A DNA stretch of 64,000 nucleotides. Source: an uncultured Anaerolineales bacterium (GTDB lineage Bacteria > Chloroflexota > Anaerolineae > Epilineales > JAANWY01). The stretch lies in NCBI GenBank assembly GCA_964532665.1, contig CAZHMV010000001.1, forward strand, positions 103,742-167,741, in the 5' to 3' direction. The notes beneath the pieces are model-generated. The model saw nothing but the letters and a program-made list of their open reading frames with translations, was not told the DNA's origin and ran no database searches. The position numbers were made by a program, and so were the translations under genes. Below are positions 15,675 to 54,625 of the stretch, piece after piece. Within the stretch, counting starts at the first letter, position 1. Every line of letters starts with the position of its first letter.

Positions 15675-15681
15675 CCAGGAG

Positions 15682-15781: not shown

Positions 15782-15787
15782 AAACAG

Positions 15788-25315: not shown

Positions 25316-25398
25316 AAGCGATAGCGATAGTGATAGTGATAGCGACAGTGGCCGGCTTGCCGTCACTATCACTATCGCTATCACTATCGCTGTCGCTA
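25316..25398. repeat. Hexamer-periodic (GATAGY) hairpin element abutting the rodA stop codon
   Basis: gcgatagcgatagtgatagtgatagcgacagtg - loop - cactatcactatcgctatcactatcgctgtcgc. Confidence 0.75.
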
Positions 25399-31885: not shown

Positions 31886-32947
31886 TTAGCGAACGACGCC
31901 GACTCGCTGGGTGGCTGCCAGGGCCACGTGCAGGGTGTCCAGGTCCTCCAGGACGGCGCCTGCACCCCGAGCCACGCAGGCCATGGGGTCGTCCGCCACC
32001 CGGACGTGCATTTTTGTTTCGTCTTGCAGGCGCTGGGCCAGGCCTTGCAGCAGCGCACCACCGCCGGCCAGCACGATCCCGTGATCCATCAGATCCGCCA
32101 CCAACTCGGGCGGCGTATCGTCCAGGGTATCGCGCACCAGATCGACAATGATGCCGACCGGGCCGGACAGAGCTTCGCGTATTTCGACGCTGCTGACCTC
32201 AACGCTTTGCGGGAGCCCGGTGATCAGGTTCCGCCCCCGTAGTTCCATGGTTTGTTCCTCTTCCAGGGGGTAGGCGGACCCGATCTGCATTTTGGCTGTT
32301 TCGGCCATCCGCTCACCGATGTAGAGATTGTATTTTTGCCGGGCATAGTTGATGATGGCCTCGTCCATCTCGTCGCCGGCCACTCGCAGAGACCCGGCCA
32401 CGACGATACCGCCCAATGCGATCACGGCGACCTCGGTGGTGCCGCCGCCGATGTCCACGATCATGCTGCCCATGGATTCAGTCACCGGCAGGCCGGCACC
32501 AATGGCAGCCGCCATCGGTTCCTCGATCAGGTAGGCCCGGCGAGCGCCGGCATTGATGGCCGCATCATGGACGGCCCGCTTCTCAACCTCGGTGACACCG
32601 CTGGGGATACCGACCACGACCCGCGGCCGCGGCATGGGCGAGAGGACTTTCTCATGAACCTTGTTGATGAAATAGTGGAGCATCTTCTCCGTGACGTCGA
32701 AGTCCGAGATGACGCCATCGCGGAGCGGGCGAATGGCGACAATGTTGGCCGGCGTCCGCCCAACCATTTCTTTGGCCTCGGCGCCGATGGCCAGGACTTT
32801 GCGCGTCTTTTTCTCGATGGCGACAACCGAGGGCTCATTGATGACGATACCCTGTCCACGGACCATCACCAGGGTGTTAGCGGTGCCCAGGTCAATTCCC
32901 ACATCGCGTGAGAAAAGGCCCAGGATGGCATTCAGAGGGCTGAACAA
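31886..32947 (-). CDS. mreB: Rod shape-determining actin homologue MreB
   Basis: GIDLGTANTLV, DIGGGTTEVAV and LAGGGALL motifs. Confidence 0.9.
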   Translation of the reverse strand: MFSPLNAILGLFSRDVGIDLGTANTLVMVRGQGIVINEPSVVAIEKKTRKVLAIGAEAKEMVGRTPANIVAIRPLRDGVISDFDVTEKMLHYFINKVHEKVLSPMPRPRVVVGIPSGVTEVEKRAVHDAAINAGARRAYLIEEPMAAAIGAGLPVTESMGSMIVDIGGGTTEVAVIALGGIVVAGSLRVAGDEMDEAIINYARQKYNLYIGERMAETAKMQIGSAYPLEEEQTMELRGRNLITGLPQSVEVSSVEIREALSGPVGIIVDLVRDTLDDTPPELVADLMDHGIVLAGGGALLQGLAQRLQDETKMHVRVADDPMACVARGAGAVLEDLDTLHVALAATQRVGVVR

Positions 32948-33005
32948 AGAAGATCCTCCTCACACAAATTGCAGATGACTGTCAGCATTATACCATAAAT
33001 CGGGG

Positions 33006-33051
33006 AAGAAAAAAAGGCCCGACAGGGCCACAAAAGTGTTTCCTGTCGGGC
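33006..33051 (-). terminator. Rho-independent terminator downstream of rplY
   Basis: Minus-strand stem GCCCGACAGG...CCTGTCGGGC followed by TTTTTTTC. Confidence 0.7.
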
Positions 33052-33084
33052 AGGACGCTTAAAGTTTGCTGCTGGTTCCCTCTC

Positions 33085-33178
33085 GTGATCACCAGTCATC
33101 AGTATTCAGTGATCAGTATTCAGTGGACAGTTTCCGATGACCGATCACTGATGACTGATCACTGATTGTCGGTCTCTT
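33085..33178. repeat. Heptamer-periodic hairpin element, CAGTGAT family; overlaps the last codons of rplY
   Basis: gtgatcaccagtcatcagtattcagtgatcagtattcagtg...ccgatcactgatgactgatcactgattg. Confidence 0.8.
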
Positions 33179-33812
33179 CGGCTGCTCCAGGTTCCACTGC
33201 CTCCGGAACGACCTCTTCCTCTAGAACCTCTTCTTCGGCCTCCGCGCGCTCCATCTCAGCATAGCCGATGCGGACGATCATTTCGTCGGGGTCGGTGAGC
33301 ACGGTGATTGAATCAGGCAGATCCAGGTCTCGCACGAAAACCGCGTCATCGACTTCTTCCAGACCGGAGATGTCGATAGTGATGGAGGGAATCAAGTCGG
33401 TGGGCAGGGCCTCAATCTCAATCGCATCCAGTGCCTGATTAACCATGGCGTCGCCGCGCTCAACAATAGCAGGTGTTCCTTCGAGGTGGAGGGGGACCTC
33501 GCTGGTGATGGTCTCAGTAAGCACGACCTCCTGAAAGTCAACGTGCAACAGACTGCGGGTGATCACGTCGCGCTGGACATCGCGGGCCAGCGTGATATGC
33601 CGCTTCCGGTCCCCTTTGATTTTCAGGGAGATCAGACGGTTGGCGCCGGCCCGCCGAAGGACGGTAGAAAGGTGTCGAGCGTTGATCTGTACCGGAATCG
33701 GGTCGATTTCAGCACCATAGATGATACCCGGCACCAGACCCTGCCTCCGGAGACGCTTGACTTTCTTGCCAATCATTTCGCGCTTCTCAGCGGTGAGTTC
33801 AATCTGCTCCAT
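33159..33812 (-). CDS. rplY: 50S ribosomal protein L25 / general stress protein Ctc
   Basis: The start is taken at MEQIELTAEKRE (GAAGGAGC RBS). L25 beta-barrel followed by an acidic C-terminal tail. The track start is 33938. Confidence 0.8.
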   Translation of the reverse strand: MEQIELTAEKREMIGKKVKRLRRQGLVPGIIYGAEIDPIPVQINARHLSTVLRRAGANRLISLKIKGDRKRHITLARDVQRDVITRSLLHVDFQEVVLTETITSEVPLHLEGTPAIVERGDAMVNQALDAIEIEALPTDLIPSITIDISGLEEVDDAVFVRDLDLPDSITVLTDPDEMIVRIGYAEMERAEAEEEVLEEEVVPEAVEPGAAEETDNQ

Positions 33813-34050
33813 AAGTCTGTGTGCTCCTTCGCTACGGTCTGTCCTGGGGGCCCTCCTGAGGCCCATCCCCAGGTCCCTCCCGAGCTTGTCGAGGGACCTG
33901 TCGAGGGGCTCGGCGAAGAACTCAGTACAGCCTGGCACAAACGTGCCCTGACCAGACGCAGGACGGTCAGGGCATCGTGCATCATACTGACGAAAACTGC
34001 AGCTAACATTATAGCATGTGTGGGTCTGCCGTGCAAATTGACCCTACGTA

Positions 34051-34167
34051 GCTACTCACCCTCCCGCAGGTTTGGAGCCTTTCTGGCCGAGAATCGCTGC
34101 TTCAAGGCCGTTTTTCGGGTGCAAAACCATTGCGCATCGCAACCTGCGGGAGGGTGGCTGAGTAGTA
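34051..34167. mobile_element. MITE-like palindromic repeat element copy 3 (full length)
   Basis: TIRs GCTACTCACCCTCCCGCAGG ... CCTGCGGGAGGGTGGCTGAGTAGTA. It is the reverse complement of copy 2. Confidence 0.8.
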
Positions 34168-34243
34168 ACGATCCTACTTAATTAATAAGAAGTTCGGTCT
34201 TGCTTTGAGCTAAGCCCTGTGGTACGATTGGCGCACGCGTACC

Positions 34244-37030
34244 ATGACCACTATCAATCGCCGCCGGCTTGGCGTCATTCTCTACGTCCTGTGCCTCGGG
34301 GGTCTGTTATTCACCGGGTTCCTCGCTGTCTTTGGACAGCGTTGGCTCCATCGCGGGATCGTCTACGGCCCGCCGCCAGCCATCTCCCTGGCCGGCGCCT
34401 ACCCCTTCGGCGTCAACGTCACGCTGGAGCAGTATTCCCCATCCCAGCGAACGCAAATCCTGAGCCGGCTCGATGACGATGGGTTCCGTTGGGTCCGCCA
34501 GGTGTTGCTCTGGGATCAAGTCGAACCGCGTCCAGGGGAGTACGTGTGGTCGCCGTGGGATCAGATCATCGAGGACGTCGCGGATCACCACCTCAAGCTA
34601 ATCCTGGTCATCGACCGGACGCCGGCCTGGGCTCGCACCGCGCCGGACGCCGACCCACGGGCGCTGCCGGCGCGCCCCGAGGACCTGGCCGGCTTTGTGG
34701 GGGCGGTGGCGGAGCGTTACGCCGGCCAGGTAGCCGCTCTCGAAATCTGGCGCGAGCCGAACCTGCAACCCTATCGTCAGGCAGGTGAGCCGTGGGCCGG
34801 CGGCCCTGACCCGACGCTGTATGTCGCGCACCTGAGAGCAGCCTACCAGTCTGCCAAAGCTGCCAACCCGACCCTCATCGTCCTCAACGCTGGCCTGGCC
34901 CCGACAACTGAGAACAGCTCGCGGGCCATGAGCGACGTGGATTTCCTGGAAGCCATGTACGATGCCGGCGCTGCGCCGTACTTCGATGCACTGGCGGCGC
35001 GTCCGCTGGGCTTCTGGTCCGGTCCCGAGGATCGGCGGGTGGACGCCAGAGTCTTGAACTTCTCGCGGATTCTGCTGTGGCGCGAGATCATGCTCCGCTA
35101 CGGCGATGCCGGCAAGGCGGTGTGGGTGGTGGGGTTTGGCTGGAATGCGCTGCCGGCGGACTGGTCCGGCCTGCCCTCACCCTGGGGGACCGACGATCCA
35201 GCGAAGCAGGCGCGTCGAACCGTCGAGGCCGTGCGCCGGGCACAGGCGGAATGGCCGTGGATGGGTCCCATGCTGGCGTTGCACCTCGATCCGGATGCGC
35301 CCCCCGACGACCCGATCCAGGGGTTCGCGCTGCTGGACGATCAACTCAGCCCGCGGCCGGCCTATCTTGCCCTGCGCGACCTGATCGCAGAGCACACGGT
35401 GGGTGTCGGGCGCTACCCGGCCGATGCGTGGTTTGCCGGCACCGACTGGCGGCCCGTGGACGACGCCACCGTGCGCCGCATGCCCGACGGCGACATCATC
35501 GTCAGCCGGCCCGTCCCCTTCGGTCGATTCTACCTGGCCATTGGGCTGCTGCTGGCAGCCGCCGGCCTCGTCGCGTGGCGTCTCGACCGCCTGATCCGCC
35601 TCCCGCGCTGGGAACTGACTTTCGCTCTCACGACCACCATCTTCTTGCTCTCACCCTGGCTTTCTCTTACCCTTGTCTCAATTCTCGGCCTATTCATCCT
35701 GTTCACGTTTCGACTGGACCTGGGTCTGGCTACCATCGTCCTCTTCATTCCATTTTTCCACTTCCCCAAATCCCTGGGCTCACACCCGATGTCCATTCTC
35801 GAACTCCTCACCTGGCTGGCCATCGCCGCCTGGCTGACCAGACAACTTCCCCGCTTCATTCACGCAATACGCAGTACGCAATACGCAATACGCAGTACGC
35901 AGTACGCATCACGTCTCGCGTCTTACGTCTCACGTCTTACGTCTTGCGTCTCACGTCTTACGTCTCTTGACCATGCGGTGATCTTCCTCCTGCTCGTGAG
36001 CCTCCTCTCCCCTTTCGTCGCCGCCAACAAAGGTGTGGCCATCCACGAACTGCGGGTGGTCGTGATCGACTCAAGTTTGTTCTACTTCCTCGTTCGGTCA
36101 TTGGGGCTGTCCCGTACCCGGCGACGTCCCGAGTCCATCGAGGGGATGTGGCGACTGGTGGATGCACTGGTGTTGGCCGGCCTCATCGTTGCGCTGTACG
36201 GCTTCTACCAGTACATCTTCTCCGGTGATGTCATCGTTGCGGAGGGGGTGCGGCGCATGCGGGGTGTGTACCCATCGCCGAACAACCTGAGCCTGTTCCT
36301 GGGGCGGATCGTGCCGCCGGCCGGCGTGGTTGCGATTTGGGGACCGGCGCGGTGGCGGCGGGTGTTCTACGCCGTGGCCGGCCTGGTCATCACCGGTGCT
36401 CTGTTCCTCACCTTCAGCCGCGCGGCGTGGCTGGTGGGCTTGCCGGCTGCAGCGCTGTTCGTGGGCCTTGTGCGGGGCCGGCGCGCGCTGACGGCCGCTG
36501 TTGCAACCGTTCTGGCTCTCACACTCAGCGTGCTGCCATTTGCCGGCACGGCTCGCATCGGCTCGTTGTTCGAGTTATCGCCGGGCAGCTCGACCTACCG
36601 CCGGCTCGAACTGTGGCAATCGGCAGTGCATATCATCCGCGACCACCCGATCTTCGGGGTGGGATTGGACAACTTCCTGTACCAGTATCGGGAAAAATAC
36701 GTCCTGGCCGGCGCTCGAGACGACCCCAGCCTGTCCCACCCGCACAACCTGATCCTGGATTTCTGGACCCGCCTGGGGGTTTTGGGGGTTGCGGCGCTGG
36801 TCTGGCTGGTGGTCGCGTTTTTCAGAACAGCCTGGCAGTTGTATCAGCGGTTGGATGAGGATGGACGTGTGCTGGCGCTCGCGCTTATGGCCAGCATGGT
36901 CTATGCGCTGGCGCACGGCCTGCTGGACAACTCGTACTTCCTGGTGGATTTGGCATACCTGTTTATGCTGGTGATGGGGGTGATCAGCCGGCTGGAGTTG
37001 GGGCGTCTGGGCAACGAACAGAGGAATTGA
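34244..37030 (+). CDS. Fusion membrane protein: N-terminal TIM-barrel glycoside-hydrolase-like domain (EIWREPN motif) plus C-terminal O-antigen ligase/polymerase (Wzy_C) domain
   Basis: One N-terminal TM, then a cellulase-family-like region, then more than 10 TM helices with the Wzy_C signature FSRAAWLVGLPAAALF and HPIFGVGLDNF. It contains an in-frame heptamer-repeat insertion at 35862-35967. Confidence 0.6.
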   Translation: MTTINRRRLGVILYVLCLGGLLFTGFLAVFGQRWLHRGIVYGPPPAISLAGAYPFGVNVTLEQYSPSQRTQILSRLDDDGFRWVRQVLLWDQVEPRPGEYVWSPWDQIIEDVADHHLKLILVIDRTPAWARTAPDADPRALPARPEDLAGFVGAVAERYAGQVAALEIWREPNLQPYRQAGEPWAGGPDPTLYVAHLRAAYQSAKAANPTLIVLNAGLAPTTENSSRAMSDVDFLEAMYDAGAAPYFDALAARPLGFWSGPEDRRVDARVLNFSRILLWREIMLRYGDAGKAVWVVGFGWNALPADWSGLPSPWGTDDPAKQARRTVEAVRRAQAEWPWMGPMLALHLDPDAPPDDPIQGFALLDDQLSPRPAYLALRDLIAEHTVGVGRYPADAWFAGTDWRPVDDATVRRMPDGDIIVSRPVPFGRFYLAIGLLLAAAGLVAWRLDRLIRLPRWELTFALTTTIFLLSPWLSLTLVSILGLFILFTFRLDLGLATIVLFIPFFHFPKSLGSHPMSILELLTWLAIAAWLTRQLPRFIHAIRSTQYAIRSTQYASRLASYVSRLTSCVSRLTSLDHAVIFLLLVSLLSPFVAANKGVAIHELRVVVIDSSLFYFLVRSLGLSRTRRRPESIEGMWRLVDALVLAGLIVALYGFYQYIFSGDVIVAEGVRRMRGVYPSPNNLSLFLGRIVPPAGVVAIWGPARWRRVFYAVAGLVITGALFLTFSRAAWLVGLPAAALFVGLVRGRRALTAAVATVLALTLSVLPFAGTARIGSLFELSPGSSTYRRLELWQSAVHIIRDHPIFGVGLDNFLYQYREKYVLAGARDDPSLSHPHNLILDFWTRLGVLGVAALVWLVVAFFRTAWQLYQRLDEDGRVLALALMASMVYALAHGLLDNSYFLVDLAYLFMLVMGVISRLELGRLGNEQRN
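35862..35967. repeat. Heptamer-periodic hairpin element (ACGCAAT/ACGCAGT + ACGTCTY arms) inserted in-frame inside the CDS
   Basis: It encodes HAIRSTQYAIRSTQYASRLASYVSRLTSCVSRLTSLD. It belongs to the same family as the elements at 39712, 41168 and 43949. Confidence 0.8.
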
Positions 37031-37039
37031 ACGAACAGA

Positions 37040-37960
37040 TCAGCCATTCTCATCCACCTGCAGATACCCATCCTGCAGCGCCACGCAGTGGACGATGCGC
37101 TGATCGATGAGCTTGTCCGCCGGCGTGGTGCAGGCACGGACAGTCACGTGATTCTTCAACGGCGTTTTCAGCAGCTTGCGTACCAGCGTCTCCTGAACCT
37201 GGAAAATGCCGGCTGAGTTGCTCATCACCACCTCGATGTCTACCGCCGTCCTCTTCCCCCGTCGGATGTGGACCTCCTCAATCGACAACGCCGATACCGA
37301 ATGAATGTCGATCCTGCCCAGATCGAAGGACATGCGGCCGCGCCCCTTCGTCATATCTGTGCCGTCGGCCACGGCGACGATCCCGCCCTCGATGGTCAGC
37401 GGCGGCGGGTCGCAGTCATGGGTAGCGATGGTGGACAGGATGAAGCTCTGGATAAGCTGATGCTGCTCGGGGTCGGGGTAGATGGCCGGCAGCAGTCGCT
37501 CCAGGATCGGTTGTGTCAGGATCACGCCGTATGCCACGTGGTTGGAGCGATGGAGCTGATTGCCGATGTCGTGCAACATGGCGCCGGCCAGGATCACGAG
37601 CATGGCGTCGTCCATGCCGCCGGCACCGGATGCGACGACATCCAGCGGCACATCCGCCTGAACCAGGGCTGCGGCGATCTGCATCGCGCCGGCTGTGGCA
37701 ACCTGCGCATGGACCGGCCCGTGATCGTTGTATCCCATCTTCATCACGGCGGTGTAGTTTGCCAGGTCCCAGTGGGCGTTCACCCTCGGATCGTCCAGCA
37801 AGGCGTCGTAGAGCCGGCGTGCCCTGGGGTAGGGTGCGACAAACTCGCGCACAATATCGTCGGCACTGTGGGCCAGATCGTGATAGTCGCCTGGTAACTC
37901 AATGTGGACCTGGTGATCGTCGTGGCTGCAAGGCTGGCGTTCGATCTTGATACGGCTCAT
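37040..37960 (-). CDS. HD-domain phosphohydrolase family protein
   Basis: H...HD motif (GAMLHDIGN). Confidence 0.6.
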   Translation of the reverse strand: MSRIKIERQPCSHDDHQVHIELPGDYHDLAHSADDIVREFVAPYPRARRLYDALLDDPRVNAHWDLANYTAVMKMGYNDHGPVHAQVATAGAMQIAAALVQADVPLDVVASGAGGMDDAMLVILAGAMLHDIGNQLHRSNHVAYGVILTQPILERLLPAIYPDPEQHQLIQSFILSTIATHDCDPPPLTIEGGIVAVADGTDMTKGRGRMSFDLGRIDIHSVSALSIEEVHIRRGKRTAVDIEVVMSNSAGIFQVQETLVRKLLKTPLKNHVTVRACTTPADKLIDQRIVHCVALQDGYLQVDENG

Positions 37961-38090
37961 TAGATTGTTCTCCGGTTCGATATGTCATAATGTGGATTTC
38001 AAGCGTCGCGTGTTGACACGACATACGACGTTCACCGGAGATCGGGTCTTACAGCATTCATCATGGTGTCACAAGTGCACCCTTACGCTT

Positions 38091-38118
38091 TTGACATGGC
38101 AACGGCTCCGTCTATACT
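38091..38118 (+). promoter_or_regulatory. Sigma70-like promoter (TTGACA-16-TATACT) for the DUF2179 protein gene
   Basis: Consensus -35 and a near-consensus -10 about 65 nt upstream of ATG 38185, in a locally GC-poor region. Confidence 0.45.
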
Positions 38119-38184
38119 TGGTAAGTGAGCATGATAAGAGCAGACGCATTGTGGGGCTGTGGTTATCCTGCAATCTATTAGGAG

Positions 38185-39258
38185 GTGGAGGAGATGCCAG
38201 ACGAGCGAACGATTGATGATGAGCAGCACGAAGAGCCGATCTGGACTTTCCGGGGCTATGAGTTGTCGGCGAGTGATCTGAACTCGGCGATGGTTCATCT
38301 GTACCGGGGCGAGGTCCAACGGAGTAACACCTGGCGCCGGCGGCTGGATAGCACAACCAATTGGGCCGTGGTCACGACGGCTGCCGCTCTGTCCCTGGCT
38401 TTCGGCGCGCCCAGCAACTCCCACGTAATGATCATCCTGACAACCCTTCTGGTCACTGTGTTTCTGTATATTGAGTCGCGGCGCTATCGTTATTACGAAT
38501 TGTGGACCTCGCGCGTCCGGCTGATGGAGACCGACTTCTTCGCTGCCATGTTGGTTCCCCCCTTTTGCCCCGATGAGGATTGGGCACGCCGGCTGGCCGG
38601 CAGCCTCCTGCGGCCGGAGTTTCCGGTGAGTGAGATGGAAGCCCTGGGCCGGCGTTTCCGCCGCAACTATGCGGTCATCTTCACCATTCTTGCCCTGGCA
38701 TGGTTCGCGAAGATCGCCATTCATCCTGAGCCGGCGTACTCCTTGCAAGACCTCCTCAATCATGCCAGATTGGGCCCGCTCCCGGGCTGGCTGATAATGG
38801 GAGCCGGGGGGGTATTCTACGTTGCCATTTTTGCAATCGGTTGGCTCACTGTGGAGATGCATGAAGCGCCGGGCGAGGTACTACCCCGCTATCCGTCACC
38901 GCTGGGGCCAGGGCGGTTAATTAACAATATCGCTGAGAAGGCGCAGGAACTCATCCCCGGGACGCTGCATCGTGTGCCGCGCCGCCAGCAATTGGCCTAC
39001 ATCATCACCGACAAAAGCCAGCGCCTGGCCGAGCGACTGATGCATGAGCTGGCGCGCGGGGTGACAGCTCTGGCCGGCACCGGGATGTACACAGGCAAAC
39101 AGCACACAGTCTTGCTGTGCGCGGTCACGCCCACCCAGGTCGCACAGCTCAAGAACATCGTCCGCGAAACGGACCCAGACGCCTTTGTGATCATCACGTC
39201 AGCCTTCGAGGTGATGGGACGAGGGTTCAAGCCAATCAAGAAGGAGTCGAAAAGTTGA
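38185..39258 (+). CDS. Membrane protein with N-terminal DUF2270-like TM domain and C-terminal DUF2179 (YitT-type) domain
   Basis: C-terminus YIITDKSQRLAERLMHELARGVTALAGTGMYTGKQHTVLLCAVT...DPDAFVIITSAFEVMGRGF matches the DUF2179 signature. Confidence 0.55.
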   Translation: MEEMPDERTIDDEQHEEPIWTFRGYELSASDLNSAMVHLYRGEVQRSNTWRRRLDSTTNWAVVTTAAALSLAFGAPSNSHVMIILTTLLVTVFLYIESRRYRYYELWTSRVRLMETDFFAAMLVPPFCPDEDWARRLAGSLLRPEFPVSEMEALGRRFRRNYAVIFTILALAWFAKIAIHPEPAYSLQDLLNHARLGPLPGWLIMGAGGVFYVAIFAIGWLTVEMHEAPGEVLPRYPSPLGPGRLINNIAEKAQELIPGTLHRVPRRQQLAYIITDKSQRLAERLMHELARGVTALAGTGMYTGKQHTVLLCAVTPTQVAQLKNIVRETDPDAFVIITSAFEVMGRGFKPIKKESKS

Positions 39259-39296
39259 AAGTTGGCAGGTCGAAGATTTCACGTTAACCTTCAACC

Positions 39297-39659
39297 CTAA
39301 CCGCTGCCGACAACGAAAGCGATGGCATGGCCGCCCTCGTGGGCCAGGCTGACGGCCAGTTCGGCGACGCCAAGGGCCTGGGCCAACTGCGAAGCAGCGC
39401 CGTGGAGGCGGATGTGGGGCTTGCCGCGGTCGTCGCACCAGACTTCAATCTCCCGCCATCGCACATCCCCGACGCCGGTGCCCAGAGCCTTGGCCACAGC
39501 CTCTTTCGCCGCCCAGCGAGCCGCCAGGGCTTCGGCGCGGCCGGCACAGTAGTCGCGCTCATCCTCGGTGAAGACCCGTTCGAGAAAGCGGGTGCCATGG
39601 CGAGCGAGCGCGCTCTCGATCCGCCTGACCTCAACCAGATCGACACCTGCGATCAACAT
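39297..39659 (-). CDS. acpS: Holo-[acyl-carrier-protein] synthase
   Basis: MLIAGVDLVEVRRIE and a conserved ACPS fold of about 120 aa. Confidence 0.8.
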   Translation of the reverse strand: MLIAGVDLVEVRRIESALARHGTRFLERVFTEDERDYCAGRAEALAARWAAKEAVAKALGTGVGDVRWREIEVWCDDRGKPHIRLHGAASQLAQALGVAELAVSLAHEGGHAIAFVVGSG

Positions 39660-39711
39660 GTCGCTGCCAAACAGTGTCTTTGCGTAGACACAAGGAGTAA
39701 CTACCTCGATC

Positions 39712-39810
39712 TAGACGTAAGACGCAAGACGTGAAACGCGAAACGCGAAACGTGAACATCCTGGACAGTTCATCCCGTTTCGCGCTTCCCGTTTCACGTT
39801 TCGCGCATCG
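39712..39810. repeat. Heptamer-periodic hairpin element (GACGTAA/GACGCAA/AACGCGA); supplies the last codons of the M16 gene
   Basis: gacgtaagacgcaagacgtgaaacgcgaaacgcgaaacgtgaa ... cgtttcgcgcttcccgtttcacgtttcgcg. Confidence 0.8.
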
Positions 39811-41119
39811 GTGGGCCGGCGATGGCCAGTGCGTAGGCGTCCCTCGGGAAGACGCGCCGCGCCGCCTGCTGGACCTGTTCGATGGTGACAGAGTTGATCA
39901 GATCCGGGTAGCGCTGCAGGTAGTCCGGCCCCAGACCAAATAGCTCCATGTCGAGCAAAGTGCCGGCCACCCCTTCGTTCGTTTCCAGGCCCAACGGCAG
40001 GGAACCAGTCAGGTACGATTTCGCATCGTCGATTTCTTGCTCCGACACAGGTTCATCCTGGATGCGGTGGATTTCGGCCAGGATCGTGTCGGTGGCGCGC
40101 TCCACATTGACCGGGTTGACCCCCGTGACGACCCGCCAGGGACCGCGTCCCAGGTGCGCCGACAGTTGGCTGTAGACATAGTAGGCCATTCCCTGCTCGT
40201 CACGCACCTTGTCTCCCAGCCGGCCCCCGATGCCAAAGGTCCCCAGAATCGTGTTGGCCAACCTGGCGCTGTAGTAGTCGGGGTCATCGCGTGCAATGCC
40301 AGGCACTCCCAGGATGATGTCTGCCTGGAGCTTGTCGGGCATTTCGCGCACTTCGCGGCGGACCTCCGTCAGTTGAGTGTCACCGGACGAGTAGCGGACG
40401 TCGGGAATATCCTGTGGGGGACGGGGATCTGCCGGCTGCCAATCCCCCAGGACCTTCTCCACTTTCGAGATGGCATCTTCGGGATCGACGGCGCCAGCCA
40501 CGGCGATGATCGCATCGGTCGGGCGGTAATAGCGGTGGTAAAACTCGGCCAGGTCGTCCCGCGCGATAGTGCCAACTGTCTCAACATATCCATCACTGCT
40601 CCGGCCGTAAGGATGCCCGTCCGGGTACGCGAGTTTGAGGAACGCCAGGTTGGCAACCCCGCGCGTGTCGTTGTCACGTTCCTGCAGTGCGGTGACTAAC
40701 TGCCCACGCACTTTCTCGGTTTCCTCCTCCGGGAAAATGGGATTTCGCAGCACATCGGCCAGAATCCCAAGCACATGGTCCAGGTCTTCGGCCAGGCACT
40801 TGACCCCGAAGGAGGTGACGTGCAGGCCGCCACCTACGCCGAGGCTGGCTCCGATCGACTCGATGGCCTCGCTGATTTCATCGAAGGTACGGTTCTGCGT
40901 TCCGTGATCCAGCATGTCGGCGACGAAGCTGGCCAGGCCGGCCTGCTTCGGTGGATCATCCACGCTGCCAACGCGCAGGTGTCCTCGCAGCACGACCGAT
41001 GGGCTGAGGAAGTTGTCACGGGCCAGCACGGTGATGCCGTTGTCGAGCGTTCGACGCGTGATAGACTCTGGCGTGGGGAGAGAGAGTTCTGGGTTGGTTT
41101 GTTCTGTTCGGATATTCAT
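39794..41119 (-). CDS. M16-family peptidase, non-catalytic-type subunit (no HxxEH motif)
   Basis: Insulinase-like fold. It pairs with the upstream M16 gene that carries HWVEH. Confidence 0.75.
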   Translation of the reverse strand: MNIRTEQTNPELSLPTPESITRRTLDNGITVLARDNFLSPSVVLRGHLRVGSVDDPPKQAGLASFVADMLDHGTQNRTFDEISEAIESIGASLGVGGGLHVTSFGVKCLAEDLDHVLGILADVLRNPIFPEEETEKVRGQLVTALQERDNDTRGVANLAFLKLAYPDGHPYGRSSDGYVETVGTIARDDLAEFYHRYYRPTDAIIAVAGAVDPEDAISKVEKVLGDWQPADPRPPQDIPDVRYSSGDTQLTEVRREVREMPDKLQADIILGVPGIARDDPDYYSARLANTILGTFGIGGRLGDKVRDEQGMAYYVYSQLSAHLGRGPWRVVTGVNPVNVERATDTILAEIHRIQDEPVSEQEIDDAKSYLTGSLPLGLETNEGVAGTLLDMELFGLGPDYLQRYPDLINSVTIEQVQQAARRVFPRDAYALAIAGPPMRET

Positions 41120-41167
41120 TTCATAGAGTTCCTTAGACAGACGTTGTGTACTGGCGCGGGAAGTTAG

Positions 41168-41240
41168 ATTCTTACGTCTTGCGTCTTACGTACTGCGTAA
41201 GCGCTGTCTTTACGCAAGACGTAAGACGCAAGACGCAATA
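41168..41240. repeat. Heptamer-periodic hairpin element (CTTACGT/CTTGCGT family) between the two M16 genes
   Basis: cttacgtcttgcgtcttacgtactgcgtaagcg...tacgcaagacgtaagacgcaagacgcaatac. Confidence 0.8.
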
Positions 41241-41241
41241 C

Positions 41242-42519
41242 TCACACCGGCACATACCACCCAACTGTACGGTTCCTCTCCACCAGGTACGTCTGCGACA
41301 CACGCTGAACATCCTCAGCCGTGACTGCGGCCAGCCGGCCCAGGTAGGCATCGAGCCAGGTGTGGTCGGCGATGATGGATGAGAACCCGAGCCAGTATCC
41401 CTGGTTGGTAACGCTTTCACTGGAATAGGCGAACTGGGCCTTGGCCTGCTTGATGGCTTTGGTCAATTCCTCCTCGGTGACGGGCTCGTCTTTGACGCGC
41501 TCGATCTCGTGCCACAGGGCGTCTTCCACTTCCTGTGGGGAGCGGCCGGCCCGAACCGTCGCCGAGAAGGAGAACAGATAAGGATCCACGGTCGCGAAAA
41601 CGTTGCTGCCAACCGCCGACGCGAGTTTCGTCTTCACGAGAGCCTGGTAGAGACGTGACGTCCGATTCGTTGTGCCACCACCGCCGAAGAAGGCCATGGC
41701 CTGGGAGCCACCCAAGATGCTGTCCAACACCAGCAGTGGGAAGAAATCTGGATGGTCGGCTGCCGGCACGTGGAACACCGCCTGTATGTATGCCGTCCGT
41801 CCCTCGCCACGAACTGTCACCCGACGCTCGCCGCGCTGTGGGGGTTCTACAAACGTGACCAGCGGCACTTCGGGGCCTTCTGGGATGCCCTCGAACAGCT
41901 CTCGAACCCGATCCAGCAGCGCCTCGGTCTCGAAGTCCCCAACAGCGACGGCAATCGCATTGTTGGGCGTGTAGTAGGTGCGGTAGTGCTTCCACAAATC
42001 GTCGCGCGTCATGGACTCCAGGTCGCACTGCCACCCGATGACCTCGTGATGATACGGATGAACCTTGAACGCGGCCGCCTGAACCTCCTCGCTCAGCAGA
42101 AACGTGGGCTGGTTCTCATGCATCTGGCGCTCCGAGATGATGACGGTGCGCTCAGCATCGGCCTCTTCGGGGTCGAAGACGGAATTGATCATGCGATCAG
42201 ATTCGAGGCGCAACGCCAGGTCGAAACGGTCAGCCGGCAAGGTCTCGAAATACGTGGTAAAGTCCACCCACGTCATGCCGTTCATGATACCTCCGTTGCG
42301 CGCGATCTGGCGATCGATTTCGCCCTTCGGGAACTGAGGCGTATCTTTGAAGAGCATGTGCTCCACCCAGTGAGAGACACCCGTCACACCCAGAGTTTCG
42401 TTCCGACTGCCGACGCGATAGAATACCCAGAAGCTGGCAACGGGCGCGCGGTGGATTTCCTTTGTCAAGACGGTCAGGTGGTTATCCAACACCGTCATGC
42501 GGATGTTATTCTCCATCAA
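41242..42519 (-). CDS. M16-family zinc peptidase (active-type, HWVEH zinc-binding motif)
   Basis: HxxEH inverted zincin motif at [12 protein letters not shown] 4-bp overlap with the ugd stop. Confidence 0.8.
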
Positions 42520-43895
42520 ACCGGCTCCTCAACTTCCAACACGGTCTTTTCAAACCTGATCAACGTATCTCTTCCCCATTCCGTGCGACCGGTGCCGTTG
42601 TAGCCACGGCCCATGCCCTGGTACACGAAGCCCAACTCCGCCATTTTGTCGGGTTCGTAGATGTTCCGGCCATCGATGATCACAGGCCGGCGCATCAAGT
42701 CGCGGACGCGGCCCAGGTCGAGCTGCTTGAACTCGTTCCACTCCGTGGCGATTACCAGGGCATCGCTGCCTTCCGCGACACGGTAGGCATCTTCACACAG
42801 TTCGACCTGCTCGAGCTGCCGGCGCGCGTTCTCCATCGCTACCGGATCATACGCCTTGATCTGCACACCCTCGTTTTGCAGCATGTGGATGATCTCGACC
42901 GCAGGTGACTCACGCATATCATCGGTGTTGGGCTTGAAAGACAACCCCAGTATCCCGATGCTTGTGTCATCGAGCCGGCCCAGGATGTTGCGCAGCTTGC
43001 GAATTACCTGCCGGCGGCGGTCGCGGTTGATCTCGATGACGGCTCGCAGCAGTTGGGGGTGCGTGCCATGGATGGCCGCCATGTGGGCCAGGGCTTTGAC
43101 GTCCTTGGGAAAACAGCTTCCCCCCCACCCTATGCCGGCGTCCAGGTAGGCATGCCCGATGCGCTTGTCGTACCCCATGCCGGCAGCAACCTCCTTGATA
43201 TCGGCTCCTAGTTGCTCGCACACCGACGCGATCTCGTTGATGAACGAGAGACGTGTCGCAAGAAAGGCGTTGGAAGCATATTTGATCATCTCGGCGGTGC
43301 GCAGGTCGGTGATGATGATCGGCGCTCGCAGAGGCAGGTAGAGCTGGGCCACCGATTCGGCGTGGTCCCGGTCGATCGCGCCCAGCACCACGCGGTCGGG
43401 ATTCAGGAAATCGGTGACCGCCGAGCCTTCCCGGGTGAACTCGGGGTTGGAAACGACCGCGAACTTCACCGGCTCCTTCAGATGCCGCCGGACCACGTTC
43501 GCCACAACGTCGCCGGTGCCAATGGGCACCGTGCTGCGATTTACGATGACCACCGGATGATCCAACACCTGGCCGATCCCGCGAGCAACGTCCCGCACAT
43601 AGTGCAGATCGGCTTCTCCCTCAGCGCCCGACGGGGTATCGACGCAAATGAAGATGAACTCGCTGTTGTGGACACCTTCCTCGTACGAAAGAGTGAAGCG
43701 CAGCCGGCCCTGTCCGACGTTTCGGCGAACCATCTCCTCCAGCCCGGGCTCGTAGATGGGCATGACGCCGCGCTGGAGCTTGGCAATCTTGGATTCGTCG
43801 ATGTCGATGCAAGTCACGTTGTTGCCCAGGTCGGCGAAACAGGTGCCGGTCACCAGACCGACGTAGCCGGTACCAATGACGCAGATGTTTTTCAT
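42516..43895 (-). CDS. ugd: UDP-glucose 6-dehydrogenase
   Basis: N-terminal Rossmann fold GTGYVGL and a catalytic GGSCFPKD motif. Confidence 0.85.
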
Positions 43896-43948
43896 GAATG
43901 TGTTCTCCTTGTGGGTAATTGATGTTTAGCGATAGGAGGACAGGAAAA

Positions 43949-44016
43949 CGATTGCGTATTGCGTATTGGGTAGAGAGTCGGCCAGGAAACACCTTGTACG
44001 CAGTACGCAGTACAAG
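43949..44016. repeat. Heptamer-periodic hairpin element (GCGTATT / GTACGCA arms; G-U-pairing hairpin)
   Basis: attgcgtattgcgtattggg...cttgtacgcagtacgcagtacaag. Confidence 0.65.
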
Positions 44017-44044
44017 CTTATCTTACCACACAAACGAATTGTCC

Positions 44045-45382
44045 TCAACCTATCGAGATGGCAACACCGTTGCTCTCCCGGGCGCCGGCCATGACCCTTT
44101 GGGCAATCCGCTGCCCGATCTCCACGGCGTAGTTGGTGCCCCGGTCCCAGGGGTACACCTGGCTCATGCTGGCAAAGTACAGGCCAGGGACCGGCGTCTC
44201 CAGCGGTGGGATGTGTTGCGAGTAGTTCACCGGCACCACCGGCTGGGCGTAGGCAGCTTTGAAAAGCCACTTCTGTTTGACCCAGGACGGGTCGAAGGTC
44301 GGGTTGATGCGCGAGAGGGCCGGCTGAAATACCTCGAAAAGCTCGTCCTCGTCCATGGAGAAATAGGGATGGGTCGGCGGCAGGTAATCGCCCAGGTATG
44401 CCAGGTGGTCGCCCCCATAATGCTCCGGGTCAATGAAGTTCGTGTGCTCCACAAAGGCCAGAAATGGAAACACACGCTTGTCCAGATTGATCCAGTACAT
44501 GCCATCGGTAATATGCCGATCAAAGGCGATGACCATGACCACAGCCCCCAGGGCATTCAGGTTGCGCAACGACACCAGATAGTCCGATGGCAAGCCGGGT
44601 ACCATGCGCATAAGCAGCGCCGGCGACACGGTACTGATCACGGCATCGAAGGCTTCGTCAACGCCCTCCCCCCTGACACGTAGCCGCCCTTCCGTCAGGA
44701 GAGTAACAGACTGCACCGGCGTGGAGACCAATATCTCACCTCCCAGCCGACGGACCCGATCTGCCAGGGCATCCACAAAAGCCTGAAACCCGCCTTCAAA
44801 GTAGCCCAGCTTGAACGTGCGGGCCCTGAAGCGTGCCCACAGCCAGGCAGCGTTCACCTCGTTGGCAAAGGGGCCGAACTTCCCTTCAAGCAATGGCTGG
44901 ATGCCGTTGCGATAAGCCGTTTCCCCCATCCAGCGCCGCGACCATTCAGCAGCAGTGGTCTGCTCCAGTTCGCCCCAGTTGGTGGTCCCGTATTTCAGGT
45001 AGGCCATTGCAGCGCCGTACCGAACACGGGCCAGGAACGGCATTGCCGGAAAGCGCAGCACATTCCGTGTCGCCTCGATGGGGTTGGCCCCATCCAGGGG
45101 AAAGATCTGCCCATTGTACCATTGCGCCGTGATAGGATTGCGAAAGAAGAGCCTGTCGCCAAAACCGATCTCATCCACCAGCTTGCGGATAGCACGATCA
45201 GTCTGGAACAAGTGATGGTAGAAGCGCTCCAGATGCCAGCCCCATCCTTCGGCGCGGAACCCCGAGGCAAGCCCACCTACTCCGGGCGCTGCCTCAAACA
45301 GGATGGCGTCATGGCCAGCCCTGGTCAACTCATAGCCGGCGGTGAGACCTGTCACGCCGGCGCCGATGATACCAACTTTCAA
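44045..45382 (-). CDS. FAD-dependent oxidoreductase (amine oxidase / phytoene desaturase-like family)
   Basis: N-terminal dinucleotide-binding motif IIGAGVTGLTAGYEL...EAAPGVGG. Confidence 0.7.
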   Translation of the reverse strand: MKVGIIGAGVTGLTAGYELTRAGHDAILFEAAPGVGGLASGFRAEGWGWHLERFYHHLFQTDRAIRKLVDEIGFGDRLFFRNPITAQWYNGQIFPLDGANPIEATRNVLRFPAMPFLARVRYGAAMAYLKYGTTNWGELEQTTAAEWSRRWMGETAYRNGIQPLLEGKFGPFANEVNAAWLWARFRARTFKLGYFEGGFQAFVDALADRVRRLGGEILVSTPVQSVTLLTEGRLRVRGEGVDEAFDAVISTVSPALLMRMVPGLPSDYLVSLRNLNALGAVVMVIAFDRHITDGMYWINLDKRVFPFLAFVEHTNFIDPEHYGGDHLAYLGDYLPPTHPYFSMDEDELFEVFQPALSRINPTFDPSWVKQKWLFKAAYAQPVVPVNYSQHIPPLETPVPGLYFASMSQVYPWDRGTNYAVEIGQRIAQRVMAGARESNGVAISIG

Positions 45383-45417
45383 AGATCACTCCACCTTCGA
45401 TAACAAAGACCAGACAA

Positions 45418-45486
45418 CGGGATGCGGGATGTGAGATACGGGATACGAGATACGGGATGCCGCATCCCGCATCTCGCGTCACGTCC
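45418..45486. repeat. Heptamer-periodic hairpin element (GGGATRY family); overlaps the last codons of the downstream gene
   Basis: gggatgcgggatgtgagatacgggatacgagatacgggatgccgcatcccgcatctcgcgtcacgtccc. Confidence 0.75.
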
Positions 45487-46507
45487 CACTCGTCATGCCC
45501 AACGGCGCTTCCTCGACAGGTGATTCTATTTCCACTTCCGTCCTTACCTCCTCCCACGACAGATGCTCGCGCCAGAGATAGAAAGCACCCAGAGCGGTGA
45601 TGGGCAGCCAAAGGGCTGCGTGGAGCACGGCAGTGTACGCTGTGGCTACGCTGCCGGCCACGCCAAAGTTCTCCAGAATCTCAATCCCCGGGGCATCGAA
45701 CGTACCGATGTAGCCAGGGGCCGCCGGCAGTGTGGTGAACAGGTTGACCACGCCGTTCATCAGCATCAGCACGTAGAAATCGACATGAAACGGGAACGCG
45801 TGCATCACGAACCAGTACTTGCCCGTCTCAAACAGCCAGATGACGACAGACGTGATGAAAATCATCATCACGTCTCGCCCTCTGCGCAGCGAATGCAGCC
45901 CTTCCAGGAAGAGGTCAAGGGGTTCTCGCACACGCGGTTGCAATCTTTCGGGCAGCAGGCGTTCGATGAGCCGGCCGTAGATGGCTTGGGCGCGCTCCGG
46001 CATGGCTGCCAGCAACAGAAAGACGACCAACGCCCCGATGAACAGCAGGCTGAACAGAACAACGAAGGTGCTGTAGCGCGACCCCAGGCCGGCAATCGGC
46101 AGAGTGATGAACACGAACAGCAGCATCGTGAGTCCGTCGAACAGCCGCTCCACGACCACCGTCGCCAGCGTGGCACTGATGGGAACGCCGGTTCGTCTTT
46201 TGAGCGCGTATGAGCGCAGGAGTTCGCCGGCTCGAGCCGGGTAGATGTTGTTACCCATATAGCCGATGCAGACGAAGGGAAACAACTGCTGCAGGGAGAT
46301 GACCTTCAAGGGACGGAGCATATAGTGCCAGCGCCAGGTGCGCGCCCCCACGCCCAGGAAATACACGGCGACACCCGGCAATAGCCAGAAGTATTGCGCG
46401 TTTTGTAACGCATGCCACACTTCGGGAAGGTCCTGCTTGCGCAGTACAAACGCCAGAAGAATGGCGCTGATAAGCATTCCCAACCAGAATCGCCAGCGTT
46501 TCCGCAT
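45479..46507 (-). CDS. LPG_synthase_TM / UPF0104-family integral membrane protein (flippase-like domain)
   Basis: Eight predicted TM helices with a GVGARTWRWHYMLR-type motif, followed by a cytoplasmic tail. Confidence 0.6.
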   Translation of the reverse strand: MRKRWRFWLGMLISAILLAFVLRKQDLPEVWHALQNAQYFWLLPGVAVYFLGVGARTWRWHYMLRPLKVISLQQLFPFVCIGYMGNNIYPARAGELLRSYALKRRTGVPISATLATVVVERLFDGLTMLLFVFITLPIAGLGSRYSTFVVLFSLLFIGALVVFLLLAAMPERAQAIYGRLIERLLPERLQPRVREPLDLFLEGLHSLRRGRDVMMIFITSVVIWLFETGKYWFVMHAFPFHVDFYVLMLMNGVVNLFTTLPAAPGYIGTFDAPGIEILENFGVAGSVATAYTAVLHAALWLPITALGAFYLWREHLSWEEVRTEVEIESPVEEAPLGMTSGT

Positions 46508-53164: not shown

Positions 53165-54625
53165 ATGATTCGCTCACTGGCTCTTAAGCTCACCCTGGCT
53201 TTTCTCGTGGTTGCGGTTATGGGCACCGTGCTGGTGGCCTTGTTCGTCGGGCAGCGAACGCAGGATGAGTTTGGCCGGTTCGTCCTCGACCGATACCGGG
53301 CGGATGTTGTCACCGAGTTGGCCGCGTACTACGAGAAGAATGGGAGTTGGGAGGGAGTAGATGCCATCGCGGTCCGTGATCTCGGTGGGCACCCTGGTCG
53401 GTGGGGGCCGGGTTGGGTACGGGTAACGCTCATTGATGCGCACAGCAAGGTTGTTTATGGCGAGTCACGTTACCGCGTGGGAGAGCAGGTGCCCCGGTCT
53501 GACAGCAATCACAGCCTGCCGATTCGGGTGAATGATGAAACGGTTGGTTGGTTGCTGTTCGATTCGTTTAGAGCCAGGGGGCGCCTGCTACCAGGTTCAC
53601 CTGAGTCAGCTTTCCTGGCAAGGGTGACGCGCGCCATCACCTTTGGCACCCTGGGAGCCATGGTGATTGCGTTGCTACTGGGTGTCTTGCTGGCGCGCAC
53701 CATCTCGCGTCCAGTTCGTGAATTGACGGCCGCCACACAACTCGTGGCGCAAGGGGAGCTGGGGCTTCAGGTACCTGTTCGCACCAAGGACGAGTTGGGT
53801 GAACTGGCTGCCTCGTTCAACCAGATGAGTGCAGACCTGGCGCATTCGAATCAGTTGCGCCGGCACATGACGGCCGACATCGCCCACGAACTGCGGACGC
53901 CCCTCAGCGTGATCCTGGGCTACACGGAAGCGTTGAGCGACGGCAAGCTGCAAGCCACACCGAAGACGTTTAGCATTTTGCACGACGGGGCGAAACACCT
54001 CAGTCGCCTGGTCGAGGATCTGCAGACGCTGGCGCTGGCAGATGCCGGCGAGTTGTCGCTAACTCGCCGGCCTGTTGATCCCAGAGTGTTGCTGGAACAC
54101 GCGGCGTCGGCTTACATGGGGCGCGCCGAGGAGAAGGGCATCTCGCTAAGCGTCGAGGCTGCACCGGATTTGCCGGAGGTCGAGGTTGACCCCGATCGGA
54201 TGGCGCAAGTGCTGGGCAATTTGCTGACCAATGCGCTGCGCCACACACCGGCCGGCGGGCGAGTCACTATGCAGTGTTCAGTCATCAGTCAACAGTTAGC
54301 AGTAAACAGTGATCAGTCATCAGTGATCAGTAACCAAACTGCTGCGGACGGCAAACTGATTACTGATAACTGTTTACTGATTACTGTCACGGACACCGGC
54401 ACCGGCATTGCCCCCGAGGACCTACCCCACGTTTTTGAACGCTTCTATCGCGGGGACAAGTCGCGCCAGAGGCAGGAAGGGGAGTCGGGACTGGGGCTGG
54501 CGATTGCCAAATCGATTGTGCAGATGCATGGTGGGAGCATTGCCGTTGACAGTACGCCTGGCGAAGGCACGACTTTCACCATCGTTTTGCCGGCCGAACC
54601 GGGTCCCCCTGACGGTGAGGTATAG
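53165..54625 (+). CDS. Sensor histidine kinase (2 TM, HAMP, HisKA, HATPase_c) carrying an in-frame repeat insertion in the ATPase domain
   Basis: H-box HELRTPLSVILGY, N-box LLTNALRHT, G1 DTGTGI and G2 GLGLAIAKSIV. Confidence 0.85.
   Translation: MIRSLALKLTLAFLVVAVMGTVLVALFVGQRTQDEFGRFVLDRYRADVVTELAAYYEKNGSWEGVDAIAVRDLGGHPGRWGPGWVRVTLIDAHSKVVYGESRYRVGEQVPRSDSNHSLPIRVNDETVGWLLFDSFRARGRLLPGSPESAFLARVTRAITFGTLGAMVIALLLGVLLARTISRPVRELTAATQLVAQGELGLQVPVRTKDELGELAASFNQMSADLAHSNQLRRHMTADIAHELRTPLSVILGYTEALSDGKLQATPKTFSILHDGAKHLSRLVEDLQTLALADAGELSLTRRPVDPRVLLEHAASAYMGRAEEKGISLSVEAAPDLPEVEVDPDRMAQVLGNLLTNALRHTPAGGRVTMQCSVISQQLAVNSDQSSVISNQTAADGKLITDNCLLITVTDTGTGIAPEDLPHVFERFYRGDKSRQRQEGESGLGLAIAKSIVQMHGGSIAVDSTPGEGTTFTIVLPAEPGPPDGEV
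54272..54390. repeat. Heptamer-periodic hairpin element (CAGTGAT family) inserted in-frame between the N-box and G1-box of the histidine kinase
   Basis: It encodes QCSVISQQLAVNSDQSSVISNQTAADGKLITDNCLL. Confidence 0.8.

Follow-up and report, generated by a model that had tools for sequence, protein, structure and literature searches.

In a 64,000-nt stretch of the genome of an uncultured Anaerolineales bacterium (contig CAZHMV010000001.1; hereafter the window), an array of 7-nt units lies in frame inside the open reading frame (ORF) of a 928-aa protein that joins a PslG-like glycoside hydrolase ectodomain to a WaaL/Wzy_C-like membrane domain (Table 1). The array fills a loop between two membrane helices, and comparison with orthologs showed that this loop is a long-lived, repeatedly used site for heptamer arrays. 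We read the feature, at a probability of roughly 70%, as a long-lived, slippage-driven compound heptanucleotide microsatellite housed in a permissive, Arg-compatible loop.

An earlier reading of this DNA, made from the letters alone (hereafter the sequence-only reading), had reported an in-frame repeat here that encodes HAIRSTQYAIRSTQYASRLASYVSRLTSCVSRLTSLD, and Tandem Repeats Finder together with the frame of ORF 34244..37030 (+) confirmed its position, frame, and peptide, with the array ending at 35966. Two stretches of period 7 were found, one at 35862-35908 (ACGCAAT, 6.7 copies, 92% matches) and one at 35909-35966 (TCACGTC, 8.3 copies, 80% matches), and their scores of 73-93 indicate head-to-tail 7-nt copies that are longer than chance allows. 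The second arm abuts the first with no spacer, and the whole array (35862-35966) is 105 nt long, equal to 15 units or 35 codons. Each of the three sense frames can be read through it, and each of the three antisense frames is interrupted by stops; the two alternative sense frames both stop within 13 nt of the array's end, at 35968 and 35979. Across the window, 13 arrays were found at lag 7, as compared with a mean of 0.01 and a maximum of 1 in 100 dinucleotide-chain shuffles, and other lags gave none (4, 5, 8, 9, and 11) or few (3, 1, and 3 at lags 6, 10, and 12, respectively). The gene derives from JGI metagenome 3300038380. An assembly artefact was considered and rejected, as an independent assembly (P0126) carries an identical array in a 928-aa product that differs from P0001 by a single substitution, at residue 293.

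The element had also been described as a hairpin repeat of an ACGCAAT/ACGTCTT family. Its family membership held, in that both arm units recur in the intergenic hairpins of the window, (ACGCART)2 at 43951 and 43998 and (RCGTCTY)2 at 41174, 41216, 41223, and 39719, and each of the two unit families has its own intergenic hairpin nearby. The hairpin itself held only in part. The array belongs to the heptamer hairpin family, but its arms are complementary at only 30 of 47 positions (64%; 81% counting antisense G.U pairs), and its RNA fold was not significant on the sense strand (z-score -1.5) but was so on the antisense strand (-3.8). Over 35855-35972, minus-strand RNA folded at -45.6 kcal/mol vs. 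-26.0 kcal/mol for plus-strand RNA, the antisense fold being stronger because eight A.C mismatches turn into G.U pairs. The hairpin of the coding copy is degenerate, and "two abutting, related arrays" is a better description of it.

The host protein matched Pfam family PF04932 at 75.4 bits (gathering cut-off 31.7) and had a weak GH42-like Pfam match at its N-terminus. An AlphaFold2 model built from 70 homologs reached a mean predicted local distance difference test (pLDDT) score of 90.3 and a predicted TM-score (pTM) of 0.83. Foldseek searches with this model matched the N-terminal domain to PslG (5bx9, E 3e-15) and the membrane domain to the WaaL O-antigen ligase (7tpg_B, E 1.9e-8, TM-score (target) 0.66). 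PslG is a GH39 hydrolase of the Pseudomonas Psl polysaccharide. By Pfam match and predicted fold the protein is a member of the WaaL-like/Wzy_C family, with a putative ligase or polymerase activity on undecaprenyl-linked glycans. Residues R787, H832, and H834 were invariant in 70 sequences and sit in the large predicted extracytoplasmic Wzy_C loop (771-835); we give them as conserved positions. Searches returned 732 homologs at E<=1e-10, and those with a source name bear the label Anaerolineae/Chloroflexota.

Hydropathy and the AlphaFold2 model agreed on a predicted layout in which an anchor helix and an external hydrolase are followed by another 15 membrane helices. Between the hydrolase and the Wzy_C loop, both placed outside, lie twelve helices, and this even number is consistent. 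The repeat occupies residues 540-574 of a loop (533-575) between the fifth and sixth post-hydrolase helices, and the sequence-only reading was right to place it in a loop between transmembrane helices of the membrane domain. This loop contains seven Arg/Lys and no Asp/Glu, and the next residue is the invariant D576; every predicted internal loop of the protein is Arg-rich. Based on hydropathy, charge, and helix counting, the loop is predicted to be cytoplasmic. The model shows helices at 518-549, 555-570, and 574-587 with a turn at 550-554 (loop pLDDT 68-82), and this turn adjoins the junction of the two DNA arms at residues 555/556; the repeat peptide may thus form a helical hairpin. The loop lies N-terminal to the Pfam Wzy_C match (714-852), and we take it to be within the WaaL-like fold, given that the structural match, known as a span and not residue by residue, runs over 456 alignment columns, a length close to that of the whole C-terminal membrane domain. 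From the predicted topology, deletion of the 35 repeat residues would leave an 8-residue loop and unchanged helix parity. The protein is conserved on both sides of the array, with D576 directly after it and all Wzy_C invariants downstream. Two genes joined by a stop-free spacer were considered as well and rejected, as the WaaL match appears to cover the helices before the loop and the orthologs are collinear across it.

To locate the loop in ortholog loci, short tblastn anchors, which placed it in 7 loci, were replaced by pairwise alignment, which placed it in 68. In all 119 full-length orthologs the loop was variable in length (15-87 aa), with the shortest natural loops at 14-16 aa (L058, P0046, P0108, and P0013). 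Every member of the close clade (66-82% identity) had heptamer-derived peptides at the loop, with differing units and lengths (Table 1). The loop opening HAIR(N/S) was common to these members, which points to common descent of their arrays. Array-bearing orthologs had loops of 16 to 51 aa, with unit counts that differed between related genomes, and the window copy, at ~15 units, is among the longest loop arrays. The sequence-only reading had proposed the discrete insertion of a hairpin element, and here it was not borne out. Comparison with homologues did reveal loop arrays in close relatives, all of which carry them, but no empty site that would support insertion was found among the 119 orthologs, and the arrays lack both a constant core and fixed boundaries. 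Nor is the peptide conserved in unrelated Wzy_C proteins, the observation that reading had named as fatal to it; such peptides occurred only in the fusion orthologs, and their sequences differ.

Within clusters at 90% identity, no length variation was detected (P0051, seven members; P0044, four members; and the P0001/P0126 pair). For the window's species two assemblies were compared, and a metagenome scan using a 24-nt left flank yielded no additional copy of the array. The CCGCATC unit fills the loops of L001 (4620-4699) and L017 (1-37), and in the window it occurs only in the intergenic hairpin at 45417-45475, where it is paired with (ACGGGAT)n; unit families are therefore common to both settings across related genomes. 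At L045, a locus that also has a loop array, (GGAGTCC)n at 2610-2637 and an inverted (CCGGACT)n at 2818-2854 lie ~180 nt apart, at and just past the end of the matched gene region (162-2819). Two contigs, L017 at its start and P0011 at its end, break exactly inside the loop array, as is expected for repeats in short-read assembly; such breaks would also fit mixed lengths in the population.

Arrays were strongly concentrated in this loop. A 7-residue periodicity was seen in 21 of 119 loops, as compared with 0-4 at lags 5, 6, 8, and 9, and when full ortholog proteins were scanned, 16 of 22 heptad-periodic segments fell at reference positions 530-559, the remainder being five Leu/Ala-rich, membrane-type segments and one N-terminal segment in P0061. 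At the DNA level, the loop makes up 1.5% of the 68 ortholog loci (481,567 bases) and held 9 of their 16 lag-7 arrays against 0.24 expected, a ~37-fold excess over a uniform spread (binomial P 4e-13, calculated from counts that are partly related by descent and hence not all independent). A native proto-repeat at the loop end, as a seed for the arrays, was rejected: the non-repeat orthologs read TGG CGC TCT CTT ACC ATG CTC there, which has no period-7 signal and a different R-to-L spacing.

Elsewhere in the window, 11 of the 13 arrays were located by ORF position in short spacers between long ORFs, with a Pfam check of the flanking genes covering some of the spacers. These intergenic arrays consist of an array and an inverted array and fold as strong hairpins (RNA fold z-scores of -3.5 to -10), with arm complementarity of 74-88% in the six measured. 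Array density was ~2 per 10 kb in the window vs. 0.3 per 10 kb in 77 ortholog loci.

The sequence-only reading had also pointed to a kinase, and this case proved real, with an array at 54278-54386 in frame inside the HATPase_c domain of a HAMP-HisKA-HATPase_c protein. Its Pfam HATPase_c match covers 137 residues for 109 profile positions, and the array, which lies between ...GGRVTMQCS and LLITVTDTGTGI, has an RNA fold z-score of -5.5. Just one sense frame is open across it, unlike the copy in the Wzy_C protein. A metagenome scan for (ACGCART)x3 found at least 120 loci with GC contents from 31% to 72%. When an array was called coding if a sense frame ran for 80 or more codons without a stop on each side of it, 31 of 138 (ACGCART)n arrays among the matches listed were in long sense ORFs. 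Ten of these long frames were checked by Pfam and all ten were recognisable genes; domains were found on both sides of or around the array in nine, and upstream only in the tenth, an AMP-binding enzyme (L167). The nine hosts were two polyketide synthase/nonribosomal peptide synthetase modules, an isocitrate/isopropylmalate dehydrogenase (Iso_dh), PrmC, two Mur ligases, MoeA, MetH, and an amidohydrolase. Coding arrays among the matches listed had 3-7 units and non-coding arrays had up to 18. The suggestion of recurrent exonisation is upheld by the kinase, by the ortholog loops with 7-residue periodicity, and by these metagenome arrays. A search of a protein database with an idealised repeat peptide returned just five short hypothetical proteins, a type of search to which HMMER's bias handling and the word index are unsuited. 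At three loci (L094, 3810-3858; L117, 824-879; L198, 6584-6947), the ORFs read through both arms of a hairpin of ACGCAAT units (IRNTQYAIRIAYCVLRN), and among them a frame that stays open for at least 326 aa and is truncated by the contig end holds five separate arrays.

On the reading that we favour, the array is one member of a genome-wide population of period-7 arrays, most of which are array plus inverted-array hairpins in short intergenic spacers, and has been in the loop since before the close relatives diverged. It would change by slippage (gain and loss of units), by point mutation, and by the spread of variant units, with only those changes retained that leave the total length a multiple of 3 nt. 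Slippage is proposed here by analogy with the literature on heptanucleotide simple sequence repeats (SSRs). Several properties may make the array tolerable, and probably near-neutral, for the protein: its units have no stop codon in any sense frame; the loop is the protein's hypervariable part; a CG dinucleotide in each unit supplies one Arg per seven residues, suited to a cytoplasmic loop under the positive-inside rule; and the 7-nt period gives a 7-residue period that fits helices, as in the modelled helix-turn-helix with its turn beside the arm junction. Several observations weigh against this account. Simple slippage leaves unexplained both the pairing of array with inverted array in nearly all of the genome's arrays and the presence of unrelated units (ACG-core, GTCACTG, AAGCTGG, and CCAATAT) in one loop. 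The protein's other indel-tolerant stretches, such as the linker after the hydrolase domain, have no arrays. Where array length could be compared (P0001/P0126 and the P0051 and P0044 clusters), no polymorphism was found, and hence either slippage is not fast or consensus assemblies hide the variation. Finally, the cytoplasmic side of the loop is deduced from hydropathy, charge, and helix counting, and the loop's pLDDT is only 68-82.

A transposed, mobile palindromic element of the miniature inverted-repeat transposable element (MITE) or Rickettsia palindromic element (RPE) kind, subsequently exonised, would account for arm units that are common to intergenic hairpins 5-8 kb away, for the array plus inverted-array layout common across the family, and for the second in-frame copy in the kinase. 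Differing unit families in one loop across clades would then imply several independent arrivals, and RPEs provide a precedent for in-frame palindromic insertions (PMC10969869). We nevertheless judge this origin quite unlikely. The copies have no constant sequence, length, or termini, and their units and unit number change between loci; the Wzy_C copy shows neither a spacer nor any terminal structure to the eye, and no formal scan for target-site duplications was made there; the orthologs lack an empty site; and the arms mix two unit families at 64% complementarity. Moreover, the arrays of close relatives share their first codons, which indicates descent and not new insertion. Even less credible, in our estimate very improbable, is a phase-variation switch, in which a change of one unit would shift the frame, truncate the protein before its Wzy_C part, and toggle a surface polysaccharide. 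A 7-nt unit is not a multiple of 3, its 15 copies within an ORF are many for a coding SSR (the coding (ACGCART)n arrays among the matches listed have 3-7), the alternative frames stop soon after the array, at 35968 and 35979, surface-glycan genes are a classic class of contingency locus (PMC4679880, PMC8262952), and the contigs of two relatives (P0011 and L017) break inside the array. However, contigs ordinarily break at repeats during assembly, the in-frame array is identical in two independent assemblies, and no length variation was found in the three other 90%-identity clusters checked. The orthologs found were also all in frame, a weak point since the comparison kept only ORFs that span the loop. 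Imperfect units (80-92% matches) would lower slippage, the immediate stop requires a CTT Leu codon that relatives have not conserved, and similar arrays occur in the kinase and in housekeeping enzymes.

The excess of arrays in the loop, 9 vs. 0.24 expected (~37-fold), would be explained if the repeat peptide were a selected module, i.e., a cytoplasmic, Arg-rich hairpin of helices that is adjusted in length through the number of units. The loop has at least three or four independent unit families and the rest of the protein has none, the AlphaFold2 model predicts a helix-turn-helix with its turn (550-554) beside the arm junction (555/556), the second arm (SRLTSYV) puts L, Y, and V on one helix face by a helical-wheel estimate made by hand, and the arrays reproduce a family-wide, R-x-L-T-x-L-D-like motif at the loop end. 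On the other hand, peptide, unit, and length vary freely (15-87 aa), many clades have non-repeat loops, natural loops of 14-16 aa suggest that the module is dispensable, the model's confidence in the loop is modest, and an inherited, self-renewing array combined with tolerance could produce the same concentration; selection of the peptide as such is, to our mind, quite improbable. The broader proposition that arrays concentrate here by DNA-level targeting of the site or by selection for an adjustable, Arg-rich helical hairpin, and not by passive tolerance, we regard as rather unlikely. If it were true, heptanucleotide microsatellites would act as an inherent source of helical 7-residue (heptad) modules for bacterial proteins, since translation of DNA with a 7-nt period always yields a 7-residue period.

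Events of this type are known, and heptamer SSRs, TAACTGA repeats in ORFs, inverted GGGAATC arrays, in-frame RPEs, and Borg repeats are all described. Heptanucleotides are the most abundant class of long SSR in most prokaryotic genomes, with slippage as the proposed mechanism (Mrazek, 2007, as cited in PMC4679880), and three tandem heptanucleotides are reported from Calothrix PCC 7601, going by the citations in PMC4679880 and PMC4692102. The window arrays share with these SSRs their tandem 7-nt units, their many, mostly intergenic copies, and the occurrence of several families per genome, but they are paired with inverted arrays into long hairpins, are dense (13 in 64 kb), and come from Anaerolineae, and the copy in the Wzy_C protein is deep inside a conserved gene. 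TAACTGA heptamers, which in ORFs give LSVISYQ repeats (MacGregor, 2015, PMC4679880), are likewise mainly intergenic in marine Beggiatoaceae and some cyanobacteria, with some ORF copies that yield 7-residue peptide repeats. Their forward orientation is barred from ORFs by stops, as is the antisense strand of the window array, and the window's CAGTRAY family resembles the reverse complement of TAACTGA. The TAACTGA cases in ORFs are mostly at protein ends or in hypothetical proteins, whereas the window array, with ACGCART and ACGTCTY units, lies midway in a conserved membrane enzyme of 16 helices and, subject to turnover, is also present in orthologs.

Inverted arrays of GGGAATC have been described in Xanthomonas, and the GGGAATC/GGGGAYT heptamers of Xanthomonas and Nostoc are genome-wide, under-represented in coding DNA, sometimes inverted, and stem-loop-capable (PMC4692102); unlike the window units, which are not G-tracts and include a coding copy, they are G-rich, quadruplex-forming, and prefer four units. 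Rickettsia RPEs and the ERIC and BOX MITEs (PMC10969869) are palindromic repeats found in frame in unrelated functional genes, where they encode fold-compatible peptides, but RPEs are ~150-bp elements with a family consensus, whereas the window arrays are built from 7-nt units with no constant core and with variable unit and length, and no empty/filled-site polymorphism was seen for the array studied here. Borg tandem repeats are described as fast-evolving DNA repeats within ORFs that add peptide while keeping the frame (PMC9879509). They give rise to intrinsically disordered stretches in the proteins of archaeal extrachromosomal elements, as opposed to the 21-nt/7-residue period, predicted helix, and bacterial chromosome of the present case, and the comparison is a conceptual one. 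Phase-variable contingency loci of host-adapted bacteria (PMC4679880, PMC8262952) also have a non-3 unit in a surface-glycan gene, but the present array has imperfect units, no frame-switching alleles were seen, the organism is environmental, and similar arrays occur in housekeeping genes.

A literature search on heptanucleotide repeats in Chloroflexi/Anaerolineae and on short tandemly repeated repetitive (STRR) sequences found no paper on this lineage. The STRR sequences are the tandem heptanucleotides of Calothrix PCC 7601. The dense period-7 hairpin arrays of an Anaerolineae genome also enter its proteins, and differing heptamer units have repeatedly come to occupy one permissive, predicted-cytoplasmic loop of a conserved enzyme of polysaccharide assembly. 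Repetitive DNA that makes new protein segments is known from Rickettsia RPEs and Borg repeats, and the present array is a further, bacterial case. The hot spot in a single loop and the wide presence of (ACGCART)n in housekeeping genes make the system worth pursuing, and the cause of the ~37-fold excess over a uniform spread is a testable question. Annotators who meet peptides such as AIRNTQY, SRFTFHV, and HHASRIT in the proteins of metagenome-assembled genomes should take them for translated microsatellites instead of domains, and for places where contigs are prone to break.

Table 1. Features of the window and of ortholog loops (window coordinates; unit families in parentheses).
Feature	Coordinates	Strand	Description
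Host gene	34244..37030	+	928-aa fusion: N-terminal anchor helix, PslG-like GH39 TIM-barrel ectodomain (~residues 40-425), 15-helix WaaL/Wzy_C-like membrane domain
Loop coding region	35840..35968	+	43-aa loop, residues 533-575, between TM6 and TM7 (TM, transmembrane helix)
Arm 1	35862..35908	+	(ACGCAAT/ACGCAGT) x6.7, i.e., ACGCART; residues 540-555, (H)AIRSTQYAIRSTQYA
Arm 2	35909..35966	+	(ACGTCTC/ACGTCTT/GCGTCTY) x8.3; residues 556-574, SRLASYVSRLTSCVSRLTS
Pfam Wzy_C match	36383..36799	+	Residues 714-852, E 5e-21
Intergenic hairpin	39713..39802	.	(AGACGCA/GAAACGC)n ... (CGTTTCA)n, related ACG-core unit; RNA fold z -6.2
Intergenic hairpin	41170..41245	.	(TCTTACG)n ... (ACGCAAG)n, arm 2 unit family, between two M16 peptidase genes
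Intergenic hairpin	43951..44013	.	(ATTGCGT)3 ... (GTACGCA)2.6, arm 1 unit family in both arms; RNA fold z -4.8
Kinase array	54278..54386	+	(CAGTSAT)n ... (ACTGATT)n hairpin array, in frame in HATPase_c, ORF 53165..54625
L001 loop			(CCGCATC)x9
L002 loop			CACGCAT, then (CACGTTT)x4
L003 loop			Decayed array, lag-7 match fraction 0.40
L004 loop			(ACGCAAC)x2, ACGCATC, then ~10 units (ACGTTTY)
L008 loop (45% identity)			(ACGTTTC)x4
L017 loop			(ACGCAAT)x2, then (CCGCATC)
Other-clade loop peptide			WSLVIGH from (TGGTCAY)
Other-clade loop peptide			PISNIQY from (CCAATAT)
Other-clade loop peptide			ASCILHP from (GCATCCT), one CpG-to-TpG step off the L001 unit
Other-clade loop peptide			KAKSWKL/ASSFQLP from (AAGCTGG) paired with (CCAGCTT)
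Other-clade loop peptide			HHAPRTT

The spacer arrays of the window belong to two main unit families, with a CAGT core and an ACG core. They follow gene 3' ends at 15674-15782, 33093-33167, 39713-39802, 41170-41245, 43951-44013, 45417-45475, and 58900-59015, occur between tandem as well as convergent genes, and have no T-run of an intrinsic terminator. Canonical intrinsic terminators were rejected as an identity for them, as a consensus scan of 32500-46000 gave no more terminator or promoter matches than shuffles did, and among the arrays it flagged only the short central stem of the element at 41170. A search of Rfam found no family anywhere in the window. The hairpin at 41170..41245 had fold z-scores of -7.4 (+) and -7.2 (-); over 41165-41250, minus-strand RNA folded at -45.4 vs. 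-40.1 kcal/mol for the plus strand, the arm mismatches being mostly A.C on the plus strand, as at 35855-35972. The window's strongest fold (-58.7 kcal/mol, z-score -10) is at 25317-25398, between two minus-strand ORFs, where 6-nt units, (AGCGAT/AGTGAT)n, face (ATCACT/ATCGCT)n; it is the sole non-heptamer of the set.

Further repeats, not of period 7 and with no obvious partner, are present at 57571-57607, (TCGGGGGAAC)x3.7, and at 46633-46678, a G/A-rich 14-nt unit x2.7. At 6224-6288, between two minus-strand ORFs, there is a perfect 23-nt tandem repeat, TTCATCCTGAGCCTGTCGAAGGG x2.8, whose frames read FILSLSKG, HPEPVEG, and LRQAQDEPFDRLRMNPSTGSG. Similar peptides occur in frame in fusion orthologs, namely FRQAQDDA in the P0004/L004 loop, PSTGLRAG in the L024 loop, and PFDTAQDKAQD and NPSTGPSS as inserts in P0006, and it appears that this second, 23-nt repeat family has also been exonised.

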